IMG/VR virus record: IMGVR_UViG_3300017922_000003
Location: 1,340-65,339 of that record
Strand: one strand, 5' to 3'
Source of the DNA: a virus
Lineage: Duplodnaviria; Caudoviricetes
Length of the DNA: 64,000 nt
Below are positions 1 to 48,900 of the stretch, in pieces. A program made the translations under genes and the position numbers. The notes under the pieces are model-generated. The model was not told where the DNA came from and searched no databases. It saw nothing but the letters and a program-made list of their open reading frames with translations. Each line of letters starts with the position of its first letter. The stretch's first letter is position 1.

Positions 1-379
1 TATCAAAGTACGGATCCATATATTTGCTCATTGTACTTGTTATTTTATCTAGCTTGCTGAATATCTCTTCATAATAACTATCTACGACAATCCAGTAGCT
101 GTCATCAAGATACAATCCAGACTTATCATATGAAGATATTACTGATACACGTGACAGATCCCATTTTCTGCTGGTAAGAGTCAAGACCATATTCTTTTTT
201 ATGTGTTCAACATCATCGCCCATATACCACTCATAAGCAACAACTTTTGTGTGGTTTTTGGCCGAATCGACAGGATTAGGTCCGGCACTTATAATCCTGC
301 CATCCATAGTCTCATAAAAATTCAGGAACTTATCCTTCTTGTTGCAAATTGACGCTATAAGTTCCAATTTCTCAGGCAT
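1..379 (-). CDS. Hypothetical early protein, partial (runs off the window start)
   Basis: ATG at 379-377 directly after the stop of the 380-871 gene, preceded by GAGGAGAG; frame is open to base 1 (MPEKLELIASICNKK...). Confidence 0.7.
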   Translation of the reverse strand, partial: MPEKLELIASICNKKDKFLNFYETMDGRIISAGPNPVDSAKNHTKVVAYEWYMGDDVEHIKKNMVLTLTSRKWDLSRVSVISSYDKSGLYLDDSYWIVVDSYYEEIFSKLDKITSTMSKYMDPYFD

Positions 380-871
380 TTAATCACTCTCCTCTACATA
401 CATTATTCCGTTTCGATTAGCAAATCTATATTTAGACGTTATATCAACTTCTTCTTTATCCTTTAATATTTTCATCGCTTTCTTTCTAAGTTGTTTTCTC
501 ACATCTCGATGCAAGTACAGGTAGATAGTCCTGCCGTCTTCACCACCAGCGAATGGAAATACTTTGATGTACCTCAAATCTTTCTTTTTCACCAAGAGTC
601 CAAGAGCGTTGTTGAGCTTTCTAACAGTCTTTATTGAAACTCCTTCCTCTCTCCATTCAAATTTCAACGCTTTATCTCTAATGGCATATTTCAACAACTC
701 GTTCACAAATTTATCGATTGCTTTCTGACCAAAGGCGATATACTTTATCTCAACTTCTGGTGTATCGCCAACGGCCTCAACCAGTTTTACCTCTCCATCA
801 ACTTCAACGAGGCATTTAAATCTAGTCATTAGCCAGTTTAGATAGTACGGAGCAAAAGCAAGTATCTTCAC
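380..871 (-). CDS. Hypothetical basic protein (~163 aa)
   Basis: ORF track 380..880; RBS AAAGGAG lies 8 nt before GTG at 871, so that start is preferred. Confidence 0.75.
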   Translation of the reverse strand: MKILAFAPYYLNWLMTRFKCLVEVDGEVKLVEAVGDTPEVEIKYIAFGQKAIDKFVNELLKYAIRDKALKFEWREEGVSIKTVRKLNNALGLLVKKKDLRYIKVFPFAGGEDGRTIYLYLHRDVRKQLRKKAMKILKDKEEVDITSKYRFANRNGIMYVEESD

Positions 872-1158
872 ATAAACCACTCCTTTAAAAGTAGAATATC
901 CTGCATTTGCATTACATTTTCCAAAATAAAATGTCCTTCATATGAGTAACAAATACTTTACAGAGGCCAGCGATACTCACTAACCCCTACACCACACAAT
1001 ACACACCCTTATTACATAACATACTAGTCTTAAGTACTACGCATACTACATAACACTAGCTTGCATAAATACACACGTAATGCCACTTAAACCCTCATCA
1101 CAACCACTGTATAAACACTTTGGAGGATTGAAGTTTTGGCCGAAATGTGCTGATCTCT

Positions 1159-1170
1159 TCATGTGCTGGG
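1159..1170 (-). promoter_or_regulatory. Early-region motif copy (CCCAGCACATGA, variant)
   Basis: One mismatch to the CCCAGCTYATGA motif seen at 2006, 2696, 3846, 4289 and 4408; intergenic. Confidence 0.45.
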
Positions 1171-1479
1171 TGGAAAATTTACAAGAATGTGTACGAATAT
1201 ACGTAAATAAGGGGAAGAATACTATTCACTCTCGCTATTCGGCTCACAGACAGGCACACAACGCCCTGAGTATAGCCTCATAGATCCCCCAACGCACCGG
1301 ATATACAGCAAAACAGCCTAACTTCAGCACTAATATTCAGTCGTTCGACCTAATTCAAGGGCAATAGGCTCCACGGAGCCATGCGGGTTTGAGGTCTATT
1401 GACGCCAAATTTCCTACACAGTGGGGCGACAGAGTACGCCCATAAATATTTGGTCATTTGACTGAATTTATACAAGCAA

Positions 1480-1707
1480 TTATTTCCACCATTCGAACCC
1501 TCCGCCGGCGGACTCCATAATTTCGTTCTTCTCTTCCTGCGTGAGTTCTCTGACTCTATAGAAGCAACCACAACTAGAACACGTGTAGAATGCGGAGTTA
1601 CCTCTTCGCCAGATCTTCTCGCCACATCTCGAGCAGACGAAATATCTGTCGTCAGTGTCGTAGGGCCAGTACTTTATCTCCATATCCTTGTTGTCAAGAT
1701 CTTCCAT
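1480..1707 (-). CDS. Small Zn-ribbon protein (75 aa)
   Basis: CSRC...CSSC double CxxC; RBS AAAGGAGG before the ATG. Confidence 0.75.
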   Translation of the reverse strand: MEDLDNKDMEIKYWPYDTDDRYFVCSRCGEKIWRRGNSAFYTCSSCGCFYRVRELTQEEKNEIMESAGGGFEWWK

Positions 1708-2005
1708 TTCCTTCGCCTCCTTTATATTATCTGTTTAGATAACATATTCACCCAAAATCCTAAGGGTAATTGTCAGAAGACACGATTTCCTAAGGGTAAA
1801 TACCTTACCCCGGCTATAAAAACGCCTTAGAATCCATTCTCGCAAGGAAAGTTGTTAATGCGCTTAAATAGCCGTTTAGCACAATCGCCAAATCGCGCAA
1901 ACCCGCATAACACCGTTGGCGTTAATGCGAGTGGGTAAGTTCAGCGCAAATTCAGCGATTTCATGTCATTTTCGCTATTCAAGATCTGATCTTGTTTATA
2001 TTATA

Positions 2006-2017
2006 TCATAAGCTGGG
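2006..2017 (-). promoter_or_regulatory. Early-region motif copy (CCCAGCTTATGA)
   Basis: Exact 12-mer shared with 2696-2707; intergenic, just after a hairpin. Confidence 0.5.
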
Positions 2018-2019
2018 AT

Positions 2020-2045
2020 AAAACAGCCCGGGTTATTCACCCGGA
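2020..2045 (-). terminator. Possible intrinsic terminator
   Basis: Minus strand CCGGGTGAATAACCCGG hairpin then GCTGTTTT, immediately after the stop at 2047. Confidence 0.45.
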
Positions 2046-2046
2046 A

Positions 2047-2421
2047 CTACTTCTCTCTCGCAAATCTTTCTTTAGCAGAAATTGTATTCAGAGTACCGTC
2101 GTTCTCAATGAGGCGTTTAAGCCAATCGGTATTTGAGTCGTTGTCCCAAATTGTTTCCGGTACCCTATTATATTCTTCCCCGTCTTTGTAGAATATAATT
2201 TCGTAAACGTTAACGTCGTCCTGGTCGTGGCGAGTTGTTCCCTCGTCCACGAAGTACTCATCACAACCAGCGAACAGCATCGCATCCAGCTCACATTCTG
2301 CTGCGAGCTTAGCGATGTTTGTGTCTTCTGAGATCTCGCTATGACCATAGTCGCCTACAGCCAGATCCCAAGCCTTCCATGTTGTTGCTAGTCTTAACTT
2401 ATCACATTCTATTAACATCAT
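2047..2421 (-). CDS. Hypothetical acidic protein (~124 aa)
   Basis: 3' part of track ORF 2047..2577; ATG at 2421 follows GGAGGTGGAG and the stop of the upstream gene. Confidence 0.7.
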   Translation of the reverse strand: MMLIECDKLRLATTWKAWDLAVGDYGHSEISEDTNIAKLAAECELDAMLFAGCDEYFVDEGTTRHDQDDVNVYEIIFYKDGEEYNRVPETIWDNDSNTDWLKRLIENDGTLNTISAKERFAREK

Positions 2422-2422
2422 A

Positions 2423-2641
2423 TTACTCCACCTCCACAAGTTTTGTTGTGTAGCTAACGTGGAACTCGTCATACATGAGTTCTTCGCCGTTGAATGTAAC
2501 ATGCACGGCGTTTTGATTTGCAAGCACTTTTTCGTGCTCGCCAGCGATATATTCAATTGCTTCATTTTTGCTATCAAATATTTCTTCTTCGAATGTTTCT
2601 ACGTCATTGTCATCTACTATATATGTTTCCACTTTCCACAT
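2423..2641 (-). CDS. Hypothetical small acidic protein (~72 aa)
   Basis: Track ORF 2423..2674; RBS GGAGG before ATG at 2641 (MWKVETY...). Confidence 0.7.
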   Translation of the reverse strand: MWKVETYIVDDNDVETFEEEIFDSKNEAIEYIAGEHEKVLANQNAVHVTFNGEELMYDEFHVSYTTKLVEVE

Positions 2642-2695
2642 GACAACCTCCACATATTTTACCCACTCAGCCACTTGCTGAAGTGGGAGATCTTT

Positions 2696-2772
2696 TCATA
2701 AGCTGGGTGGTACATAGGTAAGTATATAAGATACTGCCGATAAGTATTTTACATATTTACTCACGCACCACC
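2696..2772 (-). promoter_or_regulatory. Long hairpin ending in the early motif CACCCAGCTTATGA
   Basis: Minus-strand stem GGTGGTGCGT...ATGTACCACC (2772-2706, with G-U pairs) runs directly into the motif at 2707-2696. Confidence 0.55.
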
Positions 2773-2895
2773 TATACTCTTACACTTTCACAACCAGCGA
2801 CTATTACCCCACCACCCCCGTACTAACACTCTTAACTGTCTTGAGACATAAGAGCTATCGTACATCCCCCAACGCCTTTTTCTCGCAGACTTTTG

Positions 2896-3064
2896 CAAGG
2901 TCGTTAACGCGGGCTTTTTCAAAGTCGTTACCCTTTGGGCAACGGCTGGAATTCAAAGTCGTTACCTACGTCTCGACCTGAGATTCAAGGTCGTTAACGC
3001 GTTGCGTCTCGACTCGAAATTCAAAGTCGTTACCTACGGCTCGACTTGTTTTTCAAGGTCGTTA
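2896..3064 (+). repeat. Iteron-like array of six CAARGTCGTTA boxes
   Basis: Boxes start at 2896, 2920, 2954, 2986, 3022 and 3054 (spacing 24/34/32/36/32); inter-box sequences are also related (e.g. CCTACG..CTCGAC). Confidence 0.85.
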
Positions 3065-3078
3065 ATGCGCTTAACTTT

Positions 3079-3121
3079 AAAAAAATCCCCCTCGCCAGCG
3101 CCGATAGGCGTGGTGAGAGGG
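3079..3121 (-). terminator. Intrinsic terminator closing the early RNAP cassette
   Basis: Minus strand CCCTCTCACCACGCC-TATC-GGCGCTGGCGAGGGGG followed by A and T7. Confidence 0.7.
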
Positions 3122-3241
3122 CAAAAGGGGGTGAAAAGTTGGTAACTCAGGGTTGCTTCGGGAACCAAGTCACGTTGAGTAACTTGATTCTCGGAGTAAC
3201 CCTCCCCAGGGACAGGTGGGTCCCCGGGGAGATGATGGATA

Positions 3242-3526
3242 TTATTTAGATTCGAAGCGAACGAGGGAAATAAATTTCAGAATATTTCCCTCTCGATTAG
3301 TTTGAGTTTTACCATCGACGAGAGGTATAGAGATTTGCCACCCCTCGACGAAAGTCTTAGCAGACCTTATCGGGAGCCAGCTCTGTTCGTACACGCAGTT
3401 AACAGTTTCGCCAGATGGCGTCTTTAGCACGCCACCACGCCTATATGGTTTAACAGTTTGTGGTGAGCGCTTATATTCCAAAATCTCTGGATCTACTTTA
3501 ACAATTCTTTTCTGATTCAAACTCAT
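3242..3526 (-). CDS. Hypothetical protein (94 aa)
   Basis: ORF with RBS AAGGAGG; overlaps the end of the upstream gene. Confidence 0.7.
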   Translation of the reverse strand: MSLNQKRIVKVDPEILEYKRSPQTVKPYRRGGVLKTPSGETVNCVYEQSWLPIRSAKTFVEGWQISIPLVDGKTQTNREGNILKFISLVRFESK

Positions 3527-3773
3527 TCAAATCATCCTCCTTTAAATTTTTACCAACCTCTGGCTCGGTCGGCTTGATTTTGCTCACAAAACGTTTCCAT
3601 TTACCAATGAGTGCTTCCTTAACGCTCCAAAGAACGAGCGCAAGAAGAGCACCTAAGAAACCAAAGAATATTTCTCGCACAACAACACCCCTTCCGGAAA
3701 AGATTTCTACACTGGCAACAACGGATGGTAGTGCCAACATAGACAAAGTGAAAATAAGGATTAGTTTTCGCAA
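3498..3773 (-). CDS. Small membrane protein (~91 aa, signal/TM helix plus a second TM helix)
   Basis: Track ORF 3498..3842; RBS AAAGGGTG before TTG at 3773; hydrophobic segments LILIFTLSMLALPSVVA and IFFGFLGALLALVLW. Confidence 0.65.
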   Translation of the reverse strand: MRKLILIFTLSMLALPSVVASVEIFSGRGVVVREIFFGFLGALLALVLWSVKEALIGKWKRFVSKIKPTEPEVGKNLKEDDLNEFESEKNC

Positions 3774-3845
3774 AGTGCACACCCTTTCAAAAAGATTTCC
3801 CTGCCGGTGGGGAACCGACAGGGATATGGGGTAAAAGTGCATAGT

Positions 3846-3883
3846 TCATGAGCTGGGTGTAGCCGGATGACCACACCCAACTC
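3846..3883 (-). promoter_or_regulatory. 15-bp stem-loop whose 3' arm is the early motif CCCAGCTCATGA
   Basis: Minus strand GAGTTGGGTGTGGTC-ATCC-GGCTACACCCAGCTC then ATGAA, 9 nt after the stop at 3893. Confidence 0.55.
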
Positions 3884-3892
3884 TGATTGAGT

Positions 3893-4225
3893 TTATGCCT
3901 CTTGTAGACGGGTAACGGCAACGATTCTGCCGTTTTCCCGTACTGCTGACTTCCCGGTGTCGGGAGCCAGTACGTCCGTTCGACTGGTTTTAGATGCAAC
4001 CAGCGACGAGGTTATATAGACAGTGCCATTTTCTGGTTCAGGGATACCCTCGATATCCCCGAACACTGTCTTCACGACGGGGATTTCAAACCCGTCAACG
4101 TTCATGCTTCCATTAGGCACCTGTTGCACTGAGGCTCGTGCGACGGTACCGGATGGTTTAATCTCTAATTTTCCCCTATCGGTCTCAATGACCAGGGGGT
4201 GGGGTGTCAAATTCACTAACTTCAT
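3893..4225 (-). CDS. Conserved phage protein of the N-terminal NLTPH family (function unknown)
   Basis: MKLVNLTPH...PSGTVAR...GIPEP.NGTVYITS.LVA...R.DVLAPDTG..AVR..GRIVAV pattern recognised from many phage hypotheticals; RBS GGAGG. Confidence 0.8.
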   Translation of the reverse strand: MKLVNLTPHPLVIETDRGKLEIKPSGTVARASVQQVPNGSMNVDGFEIPVVKTVFGDIEGIPEPENGTVYITSSLVASKTSRTDVLAPDTGKSAVRENGRIVAVTRLQEA

Positions 4226-4288
4226 AAGTAACCTCCATATATTTATCCCCCGCCGGACACATTCCGGAGGGAGAAGATTTTTAATACT

Positions 4289-4470
4289 TCATGAGCTGGG
4301 TGCCTCGGAATAGCAACACAACCAGCGACAACCAAGCACATAAGAATGTACTTGAGTCGTTGATAGTATTGCTACCGAGACACGGCTCAATCCATACCAA
4401 CTACAATTCATAAGCTAGGTGGTACATATGGTGATTCAGTTCGACTGCCGACCAAGGTAACCACTCGGCT
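4289..4470 (-). ncRNA. Candidate structured non-coding RNA or leader: two tandem long hairpins, each ending in the early motif
   Basis: Stems 4470-4413 and 4389-4292 (TGAGC/GCTCA, GTGTCTCGG/CCGAGGCAC, TAGCAA/TTGCTA and others); motif copies at 4419-4408 and 4300-4289; no credible ORF. Confidence 0.45.
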
Positions 4471-4598
4471 TTGTCCCCCAACGCGCACGTGCTACAATAG
4501 AAGGGGCAAGGGAAGGTGAGAAGGCCATGCTCATCAGACTCCCGAAGCCTTCTCTTGTGGGAGTGACGAGAGGGCCGAAGCCCCCTCGTTTCGCAGAG

Positions 4599-7211
4599 TT
4601 ATTCTCGGTAATTGACAAGGAAGTCGGCTATTTCAGCCTCCTTGTCGTATGCGTCTTTGTCCAGACACTGTACGTCCGGACAATTTTCAGTTGCTTCCTC
4701 ATAGACTCCGCGGAGGAAGTCACCACGGAGTTGAGGAAGACCGAACCACCAGAGGCAGACGATGTCATCGTCATCGTCTCCTCCGATCCATTCGGCGTCC
4801 TTGTAACCAACGACGATTACATCTTCAGGTAGATATGCCGTGGTTACTTGGACTGTTGGGATCCTCTTAAGAACAGGATCCCTTTGGAGCCTAAACGTGA
4901 GCTGAGAGAGGACTTTATTAACGGCATCTGGACCAGCCGCTATGAGGTCCTCTCTCTGTTTCTTACTCAACGTTGTATTCATTTGGAGCAGTCTATTAAT
5001 AGTTTCCGCTTTGAACGGAACGACCGCTCCTCTTTCGAAAGCGCCCGTAGCCATTCTGCCACTTACAACGGGCAGTCTGGGTGTGAACGCAATCTTGGAT
5101 CGTTTGAGTAAGAATTCCATATACTCAAACAGGCGGTCAAATGTATAAGTACCGCCTTTTTCTTCGGTAACCACGATTTCCATGGCCTTACGAAGTTCTG
5201 GACCAATCATTGTGGTACCGTCGTTCTTAATAAGGTACTTTGCCGGGAGCAATTTAATGCCTCTGACCATTAGAGGCTCGTCTACTCCCTTAAGTACCAT
5301 CTTTATCTCCTTGTCAGACAGGCGTGTATCTTCCCATCTAACCTTTTCTGCCACCAGAGTCTTCACAAACTCGAGACTTGGTGGGACGGATGAGCTCTTC
5401 TCGAAAAGCTTGTTGAAAGCCTTCCTTCTGAGCTCATTCAGCTCTTTCTTCTTCATGCGGTCAATGCTCTTGGGACTATTTTCTTGAACCATTTCATCGA
5501 CCTGCTGGAGAATCATCGTTATTGACTTGATATTGTCTATGATTCTCCTAATTTCCCACTGATGTTTCTTAGCATGGTGCCTAAGCAGTGGGTTGAGCTG
5601 GCTGAACACGTCAGGAGATGTTGCTTTTTCCTGAGCGTACAGCATTGATTTCATGCGTACCCCTGTCGATCTGTCTACCGAGAGGTCTATGGTAACCTCT
5701 GATAGGCAGATATAGCACGGTACACCATTAACCGTGCCTTCAACGAGGTGCACGTTTTTGGGATCAACGTTTCGAGGAATAGTCACTTTCTCTTCCTCAT
5801 TAAGATAAGCGTTCATCGCTATTGTTCCTGAAGCGAACAACGCTTTCTTGAGTCTTCTTGATCCCTGGGAATCGAATACGAGATCAACTTGCATCTCGCG
5901 ATCCCCAACCTTGGCCCGATAGTTTCCAGACCATATTCCAATGCCTTTGGACTTGAGTCCGCCAGCATTGAACTTGGCATTAACTGCGTGACCGTCGGCG
6001 TACAGTTCCTTAAACTTCTTGTTGACTAATACGCCATTGCCACGATTAGATACAAAACCGTTACTCAGGGCAGGAAAGCCCTTTTCACAGTTCTTTGGGA
6101 TAGCTATAATAGCCTGTGTTGAAGCCTCAGGCATTTTATATGTCCCGTTTGGCAGTTCAGAGTACATCTTAATGTACTCCTTCCTGCGCTCACCCAGATC
6201 AACCGCAAAGTGCACGGCTGACTGGATTGTTCTCTTGACATCCGCTGTGTCCATCAACGGATTCAAGAGGTACATCAGGAAACTGTAGTGATAATTCTTG
6301 TTCTTAGGTACAGCCAGTTTCCCGATGGAATTTGAACTAGAGAACGATGCAAAGTCCAGCATGTCCTCTGTCCATTCTTTGCTCCCTTTGTAGGAAGCAA
6401 ATGCTTTTTCAGGGAGTTTGTTGATTAGATCCCTGAATATTTCCTTATCGTCGTATGGGTCAACTTCAACCCATAGACGTTTGCTGATCCACTTATACTT
6501 TCCAGCAAAGCGGATCAGTTTTGATTTGAGAGTCCTGAAAAGGTCTCTCCGGTGGATCTTATAGGCATATTTAAAGAGCGTAGAACTCTTTATCAGCCTA
6601 TACGTCTTACTCTTCTGGTGATAAAAGAAAACACCAGAGAGCAGGACTTTGGAGTAGTATCTCGACAGGTGACCGAGATCATCTATGATGACCTCACCAT
6701 CGAGGTCCTCACTGGACCATCGTGATGGATCATCATAGGGACTGCTGGTACTCTCGGTTTCGAATACCAGTGTTTCTTCCATCATTTCAACCAAAGGTTG
6801 CAACCTCTCAGGGTCGCCGTATGCTTCCTTGCGAGCCCTGAAAATGTCTGTTACAACCATGTGGTTGATTTTCCCGAAGGCTTTCTTTATCTCTTTCAAT
6901 TCTGCCTTCGAGAAATCCTTTCCACACAATTGGAGGAATATACTCCATTCCTCCGCCGGTTTGTATATACCCTTGTTGGAACTGTTACCGGGTATAACCG
7001 GCATGGACTTTTTGTCCAACAGAGGCTGTATTACATTTGCCTCCATGGACAGTGCTACTTTCTCCTTCAATTGCTCAGGCACATATGGCGCTAAGTGCAT
7101 AAGCAATCGAACTGGAATCCCTATGGAGTCCTTGAAATCTTTCAAGACTCTCAACTGACTACGAAATTCATCGTAAGTCAGAGGGGTTTCCAGCTTCATG
7201 AGATCGACCAT
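4599..7211 (-). CDS. Putative single-chain two-barrel (DPBB) DNA-directed RNA polymerase catalytic subunit, 870 aa
   Basis: beta-like motifs GNGVLVNKKF, K413-FNAGGL-K420-S-K422-G and VD443LVFDSQG, then beta'-like R777-D-P-V-L and GG-D812-DDD-D816. R-to-D spacing is 35 aa, as for E. coli beta' R425-D460. RBS AAAGGGGGT. Confidence 0.7.
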   Translation of the reverse strand: MVDLMKLETPLTYDEFRSQLRVLKDFKDSIGIPVRLLMHLAPYVPEQLKEKVALSMEANVIQPLLDKKSMPVIPGNSSNKGIYKPAEEWSIFLQLCGKDFSKAELKEIKKAFGKINHMVVTDIFRARKEAYGDPERLQPLVEMMEETLVFETESTSSPYDDPSRWSSEDLDGEVIIDDLGHLSRYYSKVLLSGVFFYHQKSKTYRLIKSSTLFKYAYKIHRRDLFRTLKSKLIRFAGKYKWISKRLWVEVDPYDDKEIFRDLINKLPEKAFASYKGSKEWTEDMLDFASFSSSNSIGKLAVPKNKNYHYSFLMYLLNPLMDTADVKRTIQSAVHFAVDLGERRKEYIKMYSELPNGTYKMPEASTQAIIAIPKNCEKGFPALSNGFVSNRGNGVLVNKKFKELYADGHAVNAKFNAGGLKSKGIGIWSGNYRAKVGDREMQVDLVFDSQGSRRLKKALFASGTIAMNAYLNEEEKVTIPRNVDPKNVHLVEGTVNGVPCYICLSEVTIDLSVDRSTGVRMKSMLYAQEKATSPDVFSQLNPLLRHHAKKHQWEIRRIIDNIKSITMILQQVDEMVQENSPKSIDRMKKKELNELRRKAFNKLFEKSSSVPPSLEFVKTLVAEKVRWEDTRLSDKEIKMVLKGVDEPLMVRGIKLLPAKYLIKNDGTTMIGPELRKAMEIVVTEEKGGTYTFDRLFEYMEFLLKRSKIAFTPRLPVVSGRMATGAFERGAVVPFKAETINRLLQMNTTLSKKQREDLIAAGPDAVNKVLSQLTFRLQRDPVLKRIPTVQVTTAYLPEDVIVVGYKDAEWIGGDDDDDIVCLWWFGLPQLRGDFLRGVYEEATENCPDVQCLDKDAYDKEAEIADFLVNYRE

Positions 7212-7234
7212 TTTGTTACCCCCTTTTCAAAATT

Positions 7235-7261
7235 GACAGTTTAACGTCATGTCTGGGACGT
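7235..7261 (-). promoter_or_regulatory. H-type pseudoknot in the 5' leader of the RNAP gene
   Basis: Minus strand ACGTC-CCAGACAT-GACGT-TAAAC-TGTC: stem 1 ACGTC/GACGT, loop GACA pairs with TGTC; ends 8 nt upstream of the RBS. Confidence 0.45.
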
Positions 7262-7390
7262 GAGCTACCCGCTCATACCTGCCATCCGGCATGCATCAAC
7301 GAGCAGTCGTTAGAGCTTAGTCGTTAACACATTCAACTAGTCCCCTACCGCACCTACTCTCACAGCAAAGGGGCTAATTGAATTTTTGCG

Positions 7391-7459
7391 TTAACGGTGT
7401 TGCATACCGCTACGGTTCTTAACCAACGATGTTTCATACCACAATGGATTCTTATCCAA
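7391..7459 (-). CDS. Possible 22-aa leader peptide (MDKNPLWYETSLVKNRSGMQHR)
   Basis: Perfect AAAGGAGG 8 nt before TTG at 7459; the RBS is folded into a GGAG-GAAA-CTCC hairpin. Confidence 0.3.
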   Translation of the reverse strand: MDKNPLWYETSLVKNRSGMQHR

Positions 7460-7529
7460 TGGAGTTTCCTCCTTTCCAGAGCGATTAACCCGCTCATATC
7501 TGCCTGAGGCAGGTATCAGAGAGTTAATC

Positions 7530-7566
7530 AAAATAAAGCAAAAGGCGGGGGCCGAAGCCCCTCGCC
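7530..7566 (-). terminator. Intrinsic terminator after the 174-aa gene
   Basis: Minus strand GGCGAGGGGC-TTCG-GCCCCCGCC then TTTTGCTTTATTTT. Confidence 0.7.
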
Positions 7567-7575
7567 AAAAAAATA

Positions 7576-8100
7576 TCACTTAAGGTTCTTGCGAACCTCC
7601 GACAGAAGCTTTCCAGCCTCCGTCTGTCCCAGTTTCACCTGGGACTTTTGGGGCTTTTTGCCCCTTGAGGACTTTTCGGTCCTCTTTTTCCTAGTTTTCT
7701 TTTTCGAGGACTTCTCAGTCCTCTGTTCCTTTTTGACTGCCTTTACGACAGTCATTGAGGAGAATCTTTCGACCTCCTCTTTGTTTAGAGAGCTGAGCAG
7801 CCCCCTCGTCTGGACGAAGGCTACCCTCCTCTCACGGAGCCACTTATCTTTCAAGCGCTCCGTTCTTTTTAGGCTAGCCACTACTGTGGCGTAGCCTTCC
7901 TTACTATTGGGGTCCGGATAAAGTTCATCCATCCCCCTTTTAATCGTCAGCAAGGTGCTCTTTGCACCCGCTAACTTTGAGAGGACCATCTCGGCCCTCT
8001 CGTATTTTTCATTCAGGGTTTCAACCCTTTTCAGGGCTTCCGCCCTCCTTTTCTTTTCGAGACCTTTCTCAAGGTCTCTTTTCAATTTCAACAAATCCAT
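7576..8100 (-). CDS. Highly basic coiled-coil protein (174 aa), probably nucleic-acid binding
   Basis: K/R-rich with a repeated RTEKSS unit; RBS GAAAGGGGG. Confidence 0.75.
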   Translation of the reverse strand: MDLLKLKRDLEKGLEKKRRAEALKRVETLNEKYERAEMVLSKLAGAKSTLLTIKRGMDELYPDPNSKEGYATVVASLKRTERLKDKWLRERRVAFVQTRGLLSSLNKEEVERFSSMTVVKAVKKEQRTEKSSKKKTRKKRTEKSSRGKKPQKSQVKLGQTEAGKLLSEVRKNLK

Positions 8101-8361
8101 GATTTTTCCCCCTTTCTCCTCGCCACACCCATGGACTAGTGTGGGTCACAGGAGTAGAATTTAGGTCTTTTATTTTTAGTCAATAGGGTCATTACCCAGG
8201 ACCCGAGCCCATTGCTCGTATCAACCCAACTGTTAACAGTCAGGCTCATATGAGGAATGAGCGTGGTAAAATAAAAATGTGTCCCCGGCGTGGGGCCGAG
8301 GACAAACCCCGTGTTGATTTACACAGCACACGGGAAAGCTGCGATACCCAAGGGGGAGGAT

Positions 8362-8508
8362 TTATTCCTCCTCCTTGTTTTCCTCAGGCTCCTCGATGGG
8401 CATATTGCCCTCGAGGATTTCGCTTATACTGGCATATTCGCCAGCAAAGCTTTTCTCATCCACCGTTGCTAGGCGGACAAGAAATTCAAGACCCTTTTTC
8501 CAATCCAT
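8362..8508 (-). CDS. Small acidic early protein (48 aa), first gene of the leftward arm
   Basis: Perfect RBS AAAGGAGGTGA before ATG at 8508 (MDWKKGLEF...EEPEENKEEE); 3' half of track ORF 8362..8664. Confidence 0.7.
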   Translation of the reverse strand: MDWKKGLEFLVRLATVDEKSFAGEYASISEILEGNMPIEEPEENKEEE

Positions 8509-8608
8509 GATGTCACCTCCTTTCAAATAATGTCTCCTACACCGGCTGAGAAGAAGGGCACGGGCAAAAATCTCAGCCCCTCTACCACCCGGATATAGGA
8601 GCATAGTT

Positions 8609-8732
8609 CTCCCTCCCTGTAATCCTCTCTTTTTACATTCAGTACCCCCCTCTGTTTTCTTCACTTTTCCCAGTACTCCCTCCCTGTATACGAAGTAGAT
8701 TCGTATCTTCCACGAATAATCCTCTCTTTTTA
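8609..8732. repeat. Pyrimidine-rich block with two interleaved direct repeats
   Basis: CTCCCTCCCTGTA at 8609 and 8676; TAATCCTCTCTTTTTA at 8620 and 8717. Confidence 0.7.
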
Positions 8733-8741
8733 TCTAACTGT

Positions 8742-8760
8742 TGTTATATCTACATATGAG
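8742..8760 (+). promoter_or_regulatory. Late promoter motif TGTTATATCTA-N5-GAG (terminase operon)
   Basis: Matches the motif found at the start of eight other late operons. Confidence 0.7.
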
Positions 8761-8774
8761 ACGTGAACACCTTA

Positions 8775-8844
8775 TAACGACCTTGAAAAAGCCGTTGCCT
8801 GAAGGGTAACGACCTTGAGTTTCAGGTCGTGCTGTAGGTAAGGA
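8775..8844 (-). repeat. Inverted copy of the iteron array (two perfect boxes, one degenerate)
   Basis: TAACGACCTTG at 8775 and 8807, TAAGGA at 8839 (32-bp spacing); spacers match the reverse complement of parts of 2913-2990. Confidence 0.8.
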
Positions 8845-8851
8845 AAGAAAG

Positions 8852-9613
8852 GTGGAGGTGCGACTAGTGTCCCAAAACAATGGACGAGAGTCTAAAAATA
8901 AAGAAATAGATCTCCTGTCTGAAGTGAGTAATGCGTTAGAGCGCAAGGAGAGGCAGAAGCGTAGTTTACGTGAGAAGTTAGCGTTGGCACGTGTTGGTAG
9001 TGGGGCAAACACGGGGCCGTTAGAGATACGCGATGTTGATCCATACATTGATTTAAGTGGTGTGGATGATGAGACGAGGGAGAAGATACAGCAGAGGCTC
9101 AGGTTACTTAGCAGGGGAATTAGTTTTACTGGTGTATTGAATTGCAAGGGGCACAAGGCGTGTCCTTACCGGGACGGTTGTCCATTTATTGGGTTGGAGC
9201 CCAAGGGGGAGAAGTGTCCTATGGAGATGGCGTCGCTGGATCGTATGTTTGACGCTTATTTTCAGAGTCTTGGTATAGATGGTCAGGATGCTGCGGAGAT
9301 AACGCAGTTACAGTCCCTATTGGATTTAGAGCTTAAGATCATGCGTGCGAATGCGCAATTGAGTGAAGATGGGATGGAGCAGAGCACGTACAAGCAGGGA
9401 CAGGACGGTTCGACGTTTGTTGAGAAAAAACAGCATCATTTGCTGAAGACGCTTGAGACCTTGCACAATCAGAAGATGAAGATGCTTAAGAGTTTCAAAG
9501 CCACGCGGGAAAGTCGCGATGTGGAAAGGGATGTCTTTGATTTATCCAACAGAATAAACGAGCTACACAAAGCCCAGGGGCAGAAATCTCGGGGTCAAGG
9601 GAGTGATAAATAA
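8852..9613 (+). CDS. terS: Probable terminase small subunit
   Basis: First late gene, upstream of TerL; Cys cluster (C.GHKAC....CP....CP.E) and a helical C-terminus (...KKQHHLLKTLE...KMLKSFKATRESR) typical of TerS oligomerisation regions. Confidence 0.6.
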   Translation: MEVRLVSQNNGRESKNKEIDLLSEVSNALERKERQKRSLREKLALARVGSGANTGPLEIRDVDPYIDLSGVDDETREKIQQRLRLLSRGISFTGVLNCKGHKACPYRDGCPFIGLEPKGEKCPMEMASLDRMFDAYFQSLGIDGQDAAEITQLQSLLDLELKIMRANAQLSEDGMEQSTYKQGQDGSTFVEKKQHHLLKTLETLHNQKMKMLKSFKATRESRDVERDVFDLSNRINELHKAQGQKSRGQGSDK

Positions 9614-21887: not shown

Positions 21888-21962
21888 GCCAGTGTAGCTC
21901 AACGGAAGAGCAGCTGATTTGTAATCAGCAGGTTGGGGGTTCAAATCCCTTCGCTGGCCCCA
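21888..21962 (+). tRNA. trnT: tRNA-Thr (anticodon UGU) with encoded CCA
   Basis: Acceptor GCCAGTG/CGCTGGC, D arm GCTC/GAGC, anticodon arm GCTGA-TTTGTAA-TCAGC, T loop TTCAAAT, CCA at 21960-21962. Confidence 0.95.
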
Positions 21963-42965: not shown

Positions 42966-45900
42966 GTGGTTGCCATAAACGTTTACACACCCGAATACTT
43001 CAATGCTGACATAGACGATTTGACAATAATAGGCGCGGTTGCCCTACCGGGCGGGCCGGCCAATATTAACATATCAGATCTCCCTAAAACGGCGGTTAGC
43101 AGCACGATCAACGGTAATACAAGCGTCAAAGACACCGGTCGCAAAGAGACTATGTTTGTCATTACCGCTATATTCACAGATGAGTTTGTCAAAGACAGGG
43201 TTTATATAGAACACCCTGTTGCTCCGTTGCCTCTCCCATGCAGTATGACTGCTCTACTTGGTGAACTTCAGGCAACCCCTTATGTCCCTATTTATTCAAA
43301 ACAACTTTATTCTCTTCTTGGTTTTAATGAAGATAGTTACAGCTATGATACCGGTTTAACTGCTGTCCTTACATCTATAAAGGTTCAAAGCATAAACGAT
43401 TTCAACCATGCTTATCAGGTAGATATGCAGTTCAACCTAACAAATATGAACGCAGCTTGTGGCGGACTTGTATCATTTGTTGATAAAGACGACGACAAGG
43501 AAACAAGCAGACTGTTTATGTACTCGTCTGAAGACATAATAAAGCGCATAGACGATCCAAAAGGTGAAAGAGAAACTACTTTAGCAGATGAACTACGCAC
43601 AAGTGCTTTGTTTGAAACGTTTAATCTAGGAATCGATTTATATACCATACAGAGCAAAATAGAACAGTATAAAGACAAAATAGCTGAATTGGCAAAACAA
43701 ACGTGGGGTACGAACAAAGAAAAAGAAGTAGAGAGCGAACTTGAAAAGATGCAAAGTATGTATCGCGAACTCAAGCAAAACATAGAAACTTCAAATACCG
43801 CTTTGCTCAAAGAAGCCAGTGATCTGGCAAAGGACAGTCACGCAGTTGAAGTTTACAATGCAAACGAAGGTTCAAGTACCGCAACAAGAATAAGATTCAA
43901 TACCCTGTCCAGTGTTGCTATTGGATATGACAACATTGTTTCTCCAATTTATTTACAGGACTCAGAAGTTCCAATCCATATTTTAACAGGACGTTCTCCA
44001 ACCAGCGGTACGGTATCAGTTGTAGTTAATGATACACGTGATATAGCAGCGGTAAAGGCACTCCATTCTAAGTTACAAAGAATGATCAGAAAGCTGGAAT
44101 TTATGAACAACACATTGCCGTGCTCGGTTGAAAATGAACTGACCAGTATGTTCAATATGGATAACATAACGCTCACCAGAATGGATGTACAAACACCAGA
44201 AGAGACACAAAACACATTTATTATGAGACTCAATTTTGCTTCCGGATATTACTCAGATATAAACGAGAAACTAACCTATGTAAATTATGCCATTCAAGAA
44301 GAAGTAATGAAGGCTATAGATGAAGCAATATTCCCTAAGAATAGCACATCCATAGGAAAAATCTTGGACGATGGATGGATGAAAGATTACAAAAAAGACG
44401 ATGAAGTGGCAGCTTTCATGGTCAAACCATATGTTGAATTATTACGCTCAACATATCGCGGAATATCTTCAATGACACTGGGCATAACACTTCTAATAGA
44501 ACTGATCAATCGAAGCGATCCAGATACAGTCGAATCTCTTGTCAAAGCTTTAAACAAGATGACTAACAATAAATTCAGCAATCTAATAAACCCTGGGTCC
44601 AAAAATAACAAGCTGGTTCTAGAATACACATTAGAATATCCCAAGTATTCCCAAAAGGCAAGCAAGGCTCTTTTAGCTGGTTTGAGTTTATTTAGAGAAG
44701 AAGCCTATAAAGAAGGCATTAAAGGGGCTACATATCAAACAGCAATTGATTTAACATTTGCCTCTAAAGACAAAACGTTACCTTTATCGTTACAACGCCT
44801 TATGGGTTTCAGAACAAGAACAATTGTTCCTGAGGAAACTTCCAGTCGTCGGCAACTTAGTGGTTTATTTCCTACGGTTTCTATTCCCGGCGGTGCAAAT
44901 GCTAACAGCAGAAATCTATTTTTGCTGGCAGGAAGAGAAATTACACTTGAGGATGGAACAACAAAGATATTTGGAAAAGAAGTTATTGACCGAGGCTTAT
45001 CCGATTCTATCGCCACATATGAAAACAAAGCGTTGGAATTTGCAAAAACAAACAACGATATAGAGATATATCCAAAATTGAATAAAATACGACAGATGGT
45101 TAACGATGTAGATACTGAATACACACATAACATAGACATGCTCTCCAAAGTAATTAACACCAATGAACCCATGACAGAACAGGAAATAAAGATCAAATAT
45201 CATTTTTTAAAGGCACTTTATATTGAAGCTTTAATTGAATTCGGCAGATTCAATACAACATCACCGGAGAATCTAAGGGAACTTGAGTACCTTTCCGGTC
45301 TCAGTCAAACAAATATAAGGGAATTTTTTAACAGATACAGTACCGCAGAAGAAGCAGCTTCGGCCTTAGAACAACAATTTAACGTTCTTGCCGAGGAGCC
45401 TCGCAGAATCAATGATGTTACCAGACGCAGCGATGTTAACCTAAATGAAGATTATATTCCTATCCTTATAGAAACAGAAGTCGATTCACAACCAATGAAA
45501 ACGGTATGTGATCGTGTTGGTAAATCTTCTATAAACAACTTTGATGTAAGCATGGCAGACAAATTGTTTAGCGACTTCGAAGGCGCCGAAAAGATGGAAG
45601 ATATATCCTTCGTTCCGTTGAGGGTGCATAACATAAAACAAGATTCAGCATTTGAAACGCCGGATATAACAGATGTATTCTCCGAAGACTCGGATTATTT
45701 CTTTTCCATTCCTGATGTTTCCGGTACCGTGCTTGAAGATACGTTTAGGCAAGTGGGAAAAATTTTGATTTCTTATATCGTCAATGGCAATGGCGACGAT
45801 ACAGAAAATTCAAAAATGGACCGAATCAGGCGACTTGTTTCCTTTCCGGAGCTTGGCAGTCCCGTTTATATAACATATATCAACGATATGGCCAAAGGTC

Positions 45901-48900
45901 TCGAGTACATCACATATCCACACAACATCGAATATCTTCCCGCTTTTGGAACCAAGATTTTTGATATCGTAAACAATTATTACATTGAAGACGCCAAGCC
46001 AATGGTTGACCTAAGCAAATTCTATATTGGCAACGCATTTGATATTGCAGAGATTAAAAACATCGTTACCGATTACAAAAACGCGGTTGACAAGAGCGGA
46101 CAGGTAAACGCCAAGGGAGAACTGACGGAAATTCCTGAGGATAACGAGTTGGATCAGCTCAAGGCGTGGCTGGATAAGATCGCTGCAGATGCAGCAAAAT
46201 CACTGGAACACGGCAACGAGAAGTATACCAATCACGATCAACTTAAATCGCTAAGGATCGATCTACTGTCGCACGATACACTGACCGTTCCTAGATCTGG
46301 AACCTCTGCAGCACCATCTAACAGTACTGTAGAAGAAAAAGTACAGGATGTAGAAAGTGCAAAAAAATGGGTTGAAGAGGAGTTAAAAGACGAAGAACCA
46401 CGAACGGATCTTATAAACCAAAAGATTCGCGACATTATTAAAGCAACCACAGAAATAAACAAAACTAGAAGGCAAACAGAAGAAGAGGCACTGATAATTC
46501 CAAACGATACCGCAACAGATTTTAGAAACACAACGTTTGAGCAGGCTATAGACAACATAGATAAATCCATAATGTCTCTAGACATGCTTTGTCCAGTAAT
46601 AACCGTACAGTTTCGTTGGCCTAAGCGCAATATATTACTGACATCTTCACATCTATTCTCCTATAATGGCGTAGTCAGCGTCGATATATCGAAAGCAAAG
46701 GACAATCCCGGACACACAGCGGTAATAGTTCTTTCAAACACCACAGGTAAGTTGGTACAGGAAACCAAAAACAATAGACAGGAGATAGGAAACACTCTAG
46801 ATAGCCTACTCATAACTCCGGGGGTAGATGTTGACGTTTATGAAGGTGTGGGCACGAACAAAAAGCTCGCATTCAGGGGAACTATAAGCAATGTGCAATT
46901 TGGAACAGAAGTGTCCATTGTTGCCACGGGTCACGGAGGAGAATTGATGACCCCCGTATTTGCGTCAAACGAAAAACTTGGCGGGATGGCTACCAGCCCA
47001 AGAGAAATGGTTGTTGACGCGCTCATGAAAACAGGAAGTGAACATTTTGGGGTTAACGAAAACGGTTTCTTCAGAATGCTTCTCAAGAGCGTGTTTGCTG
47101 GATCATCGCTCGATTATCTCAAGGCGTACTCGGATAAATATATATTCAGAAAATTGAGATATCGAGATGCACTATCAAGCATATACTTCCCCGACAAATA
47201 CTGGCCTATACTCGGACAATTTCGTGATCACACAGGAGCAAACAATTTTGAGCAGTATGGCGCAGACTATTCAGCGCAACCGGGGTACAGTGCATGGGAT
47301 GTTGTTACAGACGCTGTGAGAAGAGTACCGGGTTTTGTGGCATACGTAGTAGATTACGACAGTGGAGATTCACGACTGTTTTATGGAAAACCCGACTGGT
47401 ACTACAAATTCACCAAGATCATATCACCAGAATTTTGGACACGCATCGGTAAGGAAAAGAAAGAGAGTGCTTACGACAAGCTTAAAGCAGCAGTAGAAAC
47501 GTTTAAGAAGCAAACAGAAGATAGATTGGGTAAGTTAACGGACGACATAAAAACAGATTCAACGGAATATCAGATAACAAAAACGCCCGACAGCATGGTA
47601 AAGAAAATCAATGTCGGAAAAAAAGAATTATATATAGACACATCCTGCCCCGTCTATGAATTGCCTGAATATTACGAAGGCAACGGAGATTGGATTGCCG
47701 GAAAGATACTGGAAGATTACAATGGAACACCGTATATTACTCCAACTCACGTTATTGACGGTGACACTTTCTATTTCAAATCGCCTGACGGTCAGGAAAA
47801 AATAAGGTTACTTGGTGTGGATACGCCAGAAATCAACGATGAGTATTATGCCGAAGAAGCATATGAAACATTATGCCAACTTCTTGGGGTAAAACCAGCT
47901 CAGGATACAGAAAATACCAATTATAGCAATGCAAATGGTTTTGACGGCAGAAATATAATTGCATATTACACAGGAACCACAGATTCCTATGGTCGTAAGG
48001 TTTGTAGAATATATGTTGAGATAAACGGAGAGTACATAGATGTTGCAAACACATTATTGTTAAATGGATATGGAGACTTCTTCATGCCGCAATACCACGA
48101 ACTTTCCACGCCTTACATGAGAGCCGAAAAATATGCTGTTGTTAACAAGCTCGGCGTCAAAGAAAGTTTGAGCGACGAAAATGTGAACGCCATAGTTAAC
48201 ACCACAGACAATTCTATCAATAACAGAATAAAGATACTGGATGAAACAGCAGATGATCTTGAAGAAAAATATCTGTCCGTTAAAGATTGGCTCAACAGAT
48301 ATTATCACGGCAAAAAGGTTGTCGAAGGCGCCGGCAAGTATATACATAGGGCGTTGCACTGGATATCTAAATACTACTCAGACGTGGATTCCTTTGTTAT
48401 GCAATGCAAACGCAAACTGGTAGATCTGAGAGATTCACTGAACGAGGGAAAAGAATCTGATAGTATCGACAGAATTGCTCTTGGTTTGTTAAGAAGACCA
48501 CAGGGATTCATAAATACACTGCGAATGATTTTAGAATCGCCCATGACTGAGCTGCAAAACAACTTCAAAAACGCAATAGGTACGTACATGGAAGGGGTAA
48601 GAACACAGTACAAGATTAAGAACCTGAAAGAAATGACTTCAGATGGCACCCAGTCCTCGGATCAAATGTTAAAGCAACCATTTTATACCGGTACGGTTAA
48701 GCCGTTCCCTGGAACAAAACATTTCCGTAATTACTGGACTGTGACAGGCGGGCTTAATCTGATTGACAACGGCGTGTTTACCAGTTCTGATAATGTTGCA
48801 AACAGTATAACAGTCAGAGGATTAAGAAGAACAGCACAGATTCCCCTGTTCGGAGCCGTGTTTAAATTCTTCCAGTGGCTTATAGGACTGGCACCAGGAG

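Follow-up and report, generated by a model that had tools for sequence, protein, structure and literature searches.

RNA polymerases (RNAPs) of the two-barrel type carry out all cellular transcription, and it is chiefly through the small phage enzymes of this type (YonO, gp64, gp96 and gp66) that one can see how little of the machine is needed. YonO of phage SPbeta is a single chain of about 100 kDa that transcribes the late genes of its phage and, in the account given in PMC5467207, achieves efficient synthesis despite having no recognisable trigger loop and no detectable trigger-loop homology. The gp64 protein of phage P23-45 has been described as made early and as transcribing later genes from promoters of its own, and gp66 from phi14:2, a crAss-like phage, is reported to be active with a DFDID loop in which each Asp is essential (bioRxiv 10.1101/2020.03.07.982082). 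Twenty-three families of two-barrel RNAPs are said to exist (PMC10770324), and on these published accounts the hidden single-chain two-barrel phage RNAP is already known as a kind. Here we describe a further candidate, gene P0001 of the IMG/VR virus record IMGVR_UViG_3300017922_000003, in a window (the whole stretch of DNA that was analysed, 64,000 nucleotides) that covers nearly all of the 65,339-base record, itself rated 45% complete. A single long open reading frame (ORF) across 4599..7211 on the minus strand encodes 870 residues, which we read, with a probability of about 0.7, as the catalytic chain of a phage two-barrel RNAP of the cellular beta/beta' type, from a new and very rare family. 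It is set apart by how rare and how small it is, by its position in the early arm of the phage and by ending at the catalytic barrel; the fold, domain order, conservation, rarity and truncation described below are computational results.

The four motifs from which the original prediction recognised an RNAP in this DNA all lie in the 870-residue ORF, at exactly the positions it had given. FNAGGL (414-419) is preceded by K413 and followed by KSKG (420-423, with K420, K422 and G423), VDLVFDSQG spans residues 442-450 (D443), RDPVL 777-781 and IGGDDDDDIV 809-818, the run DDDDD being residues 812-816 at nucleotides 4778-4764; N392 lies within GNG. In the cellular enzyme, beta carries GDK..RHGNKG (K1065/K1073) followed by PVDIVLNP, and in beta' R425 lies 35 residues before D460 of NADFDGD. 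The distance from R777 to D812 is likewise 35 residues, as had been pointed out for P0001, and it is kept in seven of the eight members of the family, the eighth having 33. From K413 to D443 there are 30 residues, as there are from K1065 to D1095 of Escherichia coli (E. coli) beta, and the family patterns AK..(8-9)..KG and VDLVFDxQGxRR resemble, at this same 30-residue distance, DKMAGRHGNKG and VDIVLNPLGVPSR of E. coli. From the motif spacing and a domain-level superposition of the predicted model, we infer that K413 and K422 may be the equivalents of K1065 and K1073 of beta, and N392 that of D814 of beta.

The family comprises eight proteins, the query P0001 included, and none of them carries a name in any source. 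The protein collections searched are described as holding 5.8 billion clusters and 1.84 billion representatives; an exhaustive phmmer search of the 1.84 billion representatives returned five proteins at E <= 0.001, the query among them, and word-indexed searches added three more. In the alignment the identities of the seven relatives to the query are 71, 34, 35, 35, 29, 32 and 22%. P0002 stands at about 70%, P0003, P0007 and P0008 at about 34% and P0004 at about 30%; P0005 is an N-terminally incomplete piece of 476 residues, and P0006 is the most distant member, with 22-27% identity (E 2e-4). No relative was confirmed in two scans of viral contigs or among 185,579 species genomes, and in metagenome contigs P0003-like genes were found on three short contigs. 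These results support a very rare and probably new family of phage two-barrel RNAPs, of which eight members were found.

The eight-sequence alignment has 27 invariant columns, which include K413, K422, G423, Q449, R452, G718, A721, T722, R777, P779, D812, D813, D814 and D816, and the N-terminal 355 residues are conserved as strongly as the remainder. Judged from this alignment, the conservation of the motifs is more than chance. Conservation among homologs, which the original prediction had named as a check, is complete for the Asp triad and R777; as regards the lysines it holds for K413 and K422 in all eight members and fails for K420, which is Leu in P0005 and Arg in P0006. The proposed replacement by Asp of the Gly of DxDGD stands for P0001 and three relatives, Gly being kept at position 815 in three of the eight sequences and Asn found in one; P0003 and P0007 read NGDDDGD and P0006 DGDDDGD, where E. 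coli has NADFDGD. Since position 815 alternates between Asp, Gly and Asn within the family, the DDDDD loop is, on the alignment, a family variant of NxDxDGD, and a minor one, gp66 being an earlier case of a loop that works without Gly there.

The protein escapes standard profile scans, as had been anticipated for so divergent a sequence. Pfam gave only MIF4G (E 0.0036, below its cut-off), the best E value against PHROGs was 0.056, NCBIfam gave no match, phmmer against PDB sequences returned two irrelevant matches (E 0.11 and 2.2) and a search with the family profile none. The Pfam models RNA_pol_Rpb1_2 (PF00623) and RNA_pol_Rpb2_6 (PF00562) matched nothing in the protein even at E 10; used as controls, the same models matched in 14 of 14 genomes. 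A tblastn search of 50,697 phage records, SPbeta among them, also returned nothing. Homology beyond the family is carried solely by the predicted structure.

An AlphaFold2 model made from the eight-sequence alignment, with a mean predicted local distance difference test score (pLDDT) of 62.5 and a predicted template modelling score (pTM) of 0.53, contains two double-psi beta-barrels (DPBBs) on one chain, the beta-type before the beta'-type; both the barrel pair, named beforehand as a check, and its order had been forecast from the sequence. Blocks of residues 364-820 have pLDDT values mostly of 65-92, and the model is poor at 1-24, 169-363 and 825-870. Foldseek against the PDB gave 30 matches at E <= 0.001, and among the 50 matches listed all are multisubunit RNAP entries. 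When the Foldseek candidates were aligned with VIA-align, the protein split into two separate matches: residues 710..827 fall on beta' 345..475, and the offset of 352 at the C-terminal end of this match (827 to 475) makes D812 coincide with D460 and R777 with R425, the last 60 residues of the connector between the barrels aligning with beta' 228-345. An independent structure search of 48,161 representatives gave the same picture; its matches include split jumbo-phage enzymes, QDE-1, P74 gp62 and P23-45 gp96, the last three of which align across both barrels. Features of the superfamily can be recognised in the barrel pair of the AlphaFold2 model with its beta-then-beta' order, in the DxDxD of the beta'-type barrel, on which the range offset and a non-significant hhalign pairing agree, and in the invariant R777, which precedes the Asp loop as the Arg of NRAPTLH does. 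The predicted fold, the structure matches and the conserved catalytic residues support the earlier view of a very divergent phage RNAP. The matches in BFVD were all weak, led by an uncharacterised protein of a Microcystis phage (E 5.5e-4), and the ESM Atlas gave no usable match, its own model having a pLDDT of 0.34.

Coordinates of the predicted polymerase gene, its parts and the flanking hairpins in the window
Feature	Position	Strand	Basis or remark
Predicted two-barrel polymerase gene P0001, 870 residues, stop codon included	4599..7211	minus	ORF list, ATG start
N-terminal region, residues 1-355; helical 13-148, mixed alpha/beta 188-302	6147..7211	minus	AlphaFold2 model
DPBB-B, predicted beta/Rpb2-type double-psi beta-barrel, residues 356-516	5664..6146	minus	AlphaFold2 model
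K413-FNAGGL-K420-S-K422-G423, candidate 3'-end/NTP-binding lysine pair	5943..5975	minus	K413, K422, G423 invariant 8/8
Connector between the barrels, residues 517-709, mostly helical, most confident part of the model	5085..5663	minus	
DPBB-A, predicted beta'-type double-psi beta-barrel, residues 710-827	4731..5084	minus	AlphaFold2 model
R777-DPVL, putative counterpart of beta' R425 in NRAPTLH	4869..4883	minus	R777, P779 invariant 8/8
D812-D-D814-D-D816, predicted metal-binding loop	4764..4778	minus	D812, D813, D814, D816 invariant 8/8
C-terminal tail, residues 828-870, in P0001 and P0002 only	4602..4730	minus	pLDDT 40-54
UUCG-loop hairpin directly past the polymerase stop codon	4566..4589	minus	read in sequence
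G+C-rich hairpin and T-run after the upstream 174-residue gene	7530..7566	minus	read in sequence

Among the described systems, YonO (839 residues) resembles P0001 in being a phage-encoded single chain of similar size, in having its beta-type barrel before the beta'-type, in its Asp triad (DNDGD at 535-539) and in the location of its gene beside a structural module. It differs in having no sequence relation that could be detected (hhalign aligned an irrelevant stretch at E 0.29, and tblastn found nothing), in the 300 residues that follow its Asp loop against 5-54 in the P0001 family, and in its nearest Arg spacings, which are 32, 37 and 43 rather than 35. The barrels of P74 gp62 end at residue 342 of 592, with about 250 residues beyond them, and neither this protein nor P23-45 gp64 or gp96 has a sequence match to P0001; 8f5m is taken as the gp64 counterpart from a methods-section heading alone. 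The multisubunit enzymes, made of beta/Rpb2 and beta'/Rpb1 chains and including the split enzymes of PhiKZ and AR9, differ from P0001 in that the latter has both barrels on one chain of 870 residues, has nothing beyond the equivalent of beta' residue 475 or so, and lacks recognisable lobes, flap, clamp head, bridge helix and trigger loop, the Pfam models failing on it. The gp66 protein of phi14:2 is likewise a phage RNAP with two barrels, and the fourth position of its loop (DFDID) is not Gly, but it is described as a virion protein of 2,180 residues with the loop at 1361-1365, a bridge helix at 1529-1559 and a trigger loop at 1598-1636, that is, 160-270 residues past DFDID; it is not among the structural matches listed, an absence that says little. 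QDE-1 and the eukaryotic RNA-dependent RNAPs are set apart by a bridge helix, a trigger loop, a homodimeric state and a role in eukaryotic RNA silencing, and have no sequence match to P0001. In the literature searched, the family lists of PMC10770324 lying outside that search, no two-barrel RNAP ending at the catalytic barrel and no DDDDD loop is described.

The way in which the chain ends is its most surprising feature. The residues after the last Asp number 54, 54, 8, 5, 9, 17, 7 and 7 in the eight members, thus 5-17 in six of them, a length that just suffices for the final barrel strand. With all members stopping 5-54 residues beyond the Asp loop, neither a bridge helix nor a trigger loop stands where these elements usually do, on the C-terminal side of the beta'-type barrel. 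No homolog in the 261-1,546-residue range exceeds 883 residues, and none was found in the range of 1,547-4,415 residues, the latter being weak evidence. The original prediction of a compact single-chain RNAP is upheld as far as the two barrels on one chain are concerned; its completeness was perhaps overstated, as P0001 stops 54 residues past the loop. Equivalents of the bridge helix and trigger loop may lie elsewhere in the chain or be provided in trans.

In the mechanism that we propose, the beta-type barrel (356-516), with K413 and K422, would face the beta'-type barrel (710-827), with R777 and D812/D814/D816. As in the other enzymes of the superfamily, the three Asp residues would bind the catalytic Mg2+, and K413, K422 and R777 would hold the RNA 3' end and the incoming nucleoside triphosphate (NTP), the helical connector (517-709) possibly serving as a clamp-like wall. 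As the chain stops after the last strand of the beta'-barrel, template guidance and translocation would have to rest on the N-terminal 355 residues, on a separate protein, or on nothing. The enzyme would be made early, from the leftward arm, and, on the precedent of YonO and gp64, would serve to transcribe, independently of the host polymerase, the structural genes of the rightward side, ahead of which the repeated phage-specific motif TGTTATWTCTA stands; its activity, DNA template, RNA product, promoter use and timing are what we infer for it in this scheme.

Several observations weigh against the reading of P0001 as the catalytic chain of a two-barrel RNAP. The Pfam RNAP models match nothing across the whole record, and the family profile aligned by hhalign reaches only E 0.15 against E. 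coli beta', a value that is not significant, in its single alignment, which pairs R777 with R425 and D812 with D460, and gives nothing relevant against beta or YonO. Smith-Waterman scores against E. coli beta and beta' were reached by 19 and 27 of 200 shuffles. The structural case consists of one predicted model from a shallow alignment of eight sequences. At the position of beta' N458 P0001 has Gly (G810), Asn being present in only three of the eight members, and the acidic residue expected in the beta-type barrel, which the original prediction had thought replaced by Asn, is indeed Asn (N392) in six members and is Asp in the other two. There is no room for a bridge helix past the barrel, whereas this element is reported to be conserved in all two-DPBB RNA polymerases (PMC6355029, PMC10770324). 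Finally, the tie between the polymerase and the TGTTATWTCTA motif is drawn by analogy.

The termination of the chain bears directly on whether P0001 acts alone. It may be one subunit of a split multi-chain polymerase, with the C-terminal part of beta fused to the N-terminal part of beta' and a second gene supplying the bridge helix and trigger loop, in the manner of jumbo-phage, cyanobacterial or plastid enzymes; this would be a variant of the RNAP reading and not its opposite, and we consider it a real possibility, though well short of an even chance. The ending of every member so soon after the Asp loop speaks for such a split, RpoC1-type split chains (8gzg_D, 611 residues) are among the Foldseek matches, and with the record 45% complete over half of the genes are unseen. 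No partner candidate was found, however: Pfam Rpb1_5 gave nothing in the record, though this model also misses the barrels, and BLASTP found no neighbour of the polymerase gene common to the window and three homolog contigs. The genes around P0001 are likewise without an informative family, and the ORFs in the 1,339 bases to the left of the window are small and unremarkable.

Somewhat more doubtful is the idea of a minimal two-barrel transcriptase with neither bridge helix nor trigger loop, in which the barrels, the connector and the N-terminal domain would guide the template as a KH-like domain does in PolD. PolD is described as the one two-barrel polymerase without a bridge helix, an N-terminal KH-like domain taking its place (Raia et al., PMC6355029), and the same precedent suggests a replication enzyme of PolD-like or primase-like kind, making DNA or short primers with its N-terminal domain guiding the template. 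The gene does lie in the early arm, no DNA polymerase was seen among the part of the window ORFs that was scanned, and in the contig that carries the homolog P0003 (L002) the gene at 4317-4820, which overlaps the polymerase gene at its end, is RNase H-like (PHROG 531, E 1.2e-5). Against this stand the full Asp triad, the NxDxDGD of the relatives and the Arg 35 residues upstream as in beta', all of which are marks of an RNA polymerase, whereas PolD is stated to share two, not three, of the invariant aspartates (PMC6355029) and tailed phages have been reported with PolA, PolB or PolC, not PolD (PMC11348598). The N-terminal region folded alone has a mean pLDDT of 52.7 and gave no KH-like match, a weak test given so poor a model. 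On balance we hold a replication enzyme to be unlikely.

Slimmer still is the chance of an RNA-templated enzyme of the QDE-1 kind, or of another non-transcriptional RNA polymerase making, for instance, antisense or double-stranded RNA in infection: QDE-1 aligns across both barrels, but taken singly the barrels fit beta and beta' chains no worse, both the R-35-D spacing and NGDDDGD belong to the beta' type, and the phage members characterised in the published accounts (YonO, gp64/gp96) are DNA-dependent. An inactive relic, or a structural or regulatory protein keeping only the fold, is very improbable, for although G810 in place of N458, N392 in place of an acidic residue, D815 in place of Gly and the missing bridge helix and trigger loop are departures from the canon, these substitutions are not shared throughout the family, in which Gly, Asn and Asp each occur, the small set of columns left unchanged at a divergence down to 22% identity coincides exactly with the catalytic residues, and the difference in the D815 codon between related contigs is synonymous (GAT>GAC, plus-strand A>G at 4767, in contigs of two of the four metagenome runs compared).

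With regard to the genome around the predicted RNAP, the plus strand from 11.4 kb rightwards carries genes for the large terminase (TerL), a portal, a protease-like protein and a major head protein, and after the head genes those of three giant proteins of 1,902, 1,914 and 2,279 residues. A second hidden polymerase in this tail module was looked for by a D.D.D motif scan of the three giant ORFs and rejected on that scan only, its sole match being DKDDD at residue 173 of the 2,279-residue protein, without an upstream Arg. This last protein (42966-49805, plus strand) matches Pfam SNase (staphylococcal nuclease) at residues 1612-1730 (E 1.4e-4) and is endolysin-like at residues 2016-2103 (PHROG 20474), and the 1,902- and 1,914-residue proteins have no family match. 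A tRNA-Thr (TGT) gene lies at 21888-21962 on the plus strand, between the gene of the major head protein and the next operon. The motif TGTTATWTCTA has nine exact copies between 8742 and 62640 of the window, all on the plus strand; at no more than one mismatch there are 20 copies against 3.47 expected, a count that none of 100 shuffles reached. The copies lie 19-55 nucleotides ahead of ORF starts, often after terminator-like hairpins, and mostly have GAG 3-5 nucleotides later. On these features of the sequence, TGTTATWTCTA is a candidate phage-specific late promoter.

The polymerase gene itself lies in the short leftward arm, among small genes. A different motif, CCCAGCTYATGA, occurs in the intergenic parts of this early arm, with six copies (four exact and two with one mismatch) at 1159-4419, all on the minus strand, against 0.52 expected. 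The first gene after the polymerase gene (3893-4225, minus strand) encodes 110 residues with partial matches to two PHROGs of unknown function, 21731 (E 4e-22) and 30542 (E 3e-17), and is the sole early-arm protein with a family match. In contig L002, the match of a 286-residue gene upstream of P0003 is weak and repressor-like. Contigs of other metagenome runs, labelled oil field or subsurface, contain diverged relatives of the polymerase gene (window 4300-8900), 80-99% alike in pieces, and one metagenome contig of 3,210 bases spans parts of the gene with many substitutions. The stretch itself is present whole in two sequencing runs, which may be where it came from, and in small part in others, with no RNA run among those listed.

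At its 5' end the ORF has a Shine-Dalgarno-like stretch, AAGGGGGT, 8 nucleotides ahead of the ATG at 7211. Upstream lie about 360 nucleotides of non-coding DNA, opening with the G+C-rich hairpin and T-run listed in the table; this hairpin, whose stem has a bulge, was not listed by a consensus scan. Because the hairpin and T-run follow the 174-residue gene, a separate start signal within 7212-7529 is probable for the polymerase gene. A sigma-70-type promoter scan of positions 1-9500 found 11 sites against 13.4 expected and was uninformative. The same non-coding stretch contains two exact copies of TATGAGCGGGT on the minus strand, at 7267-7277 and 7488-7498, with no further exact copy in the window and a count at two mismatches that is not above chance; the pair could be a start signal or operator of the polymerase gene. 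On the 3' side, about 370 nucleotides past the stop codon are without a credible frame: no frame continues beyond the UUCG hairpin, ORFs of at least 100 residues being absent from the minus strand before 4225, and no Rfam family, introns included, was found in window 1-9000. An intron or frameshift leading to a second exon was rejected, with no Rfam match and the next ORF downstream having its own ribosome-binding site.

What the gene would mean depends on whether its product works by itself. If it is active alone, it would set a new lower bound for the two-barrel fold and contradict the universality of the bridge helix; should the minimal transcriptase prove true, the bridge helix would not be universally required for RNA synthesis by this fold, and, of enzymes living today, this family would best model the barrel-pair polymerase proposed as ancestral. 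If a partner is needed, it would represent a new way of splitting the enzyme. The family is therefore of interest for polymerase evolution and for minimal transcription systems, and P0001, compact at 100 kDa, might serve as the basis of a new orthogonal transcription system, for which the phage also offers a candidate promoter motif; either way, the polymerase would mark this phage as transcriptionally autonomous.

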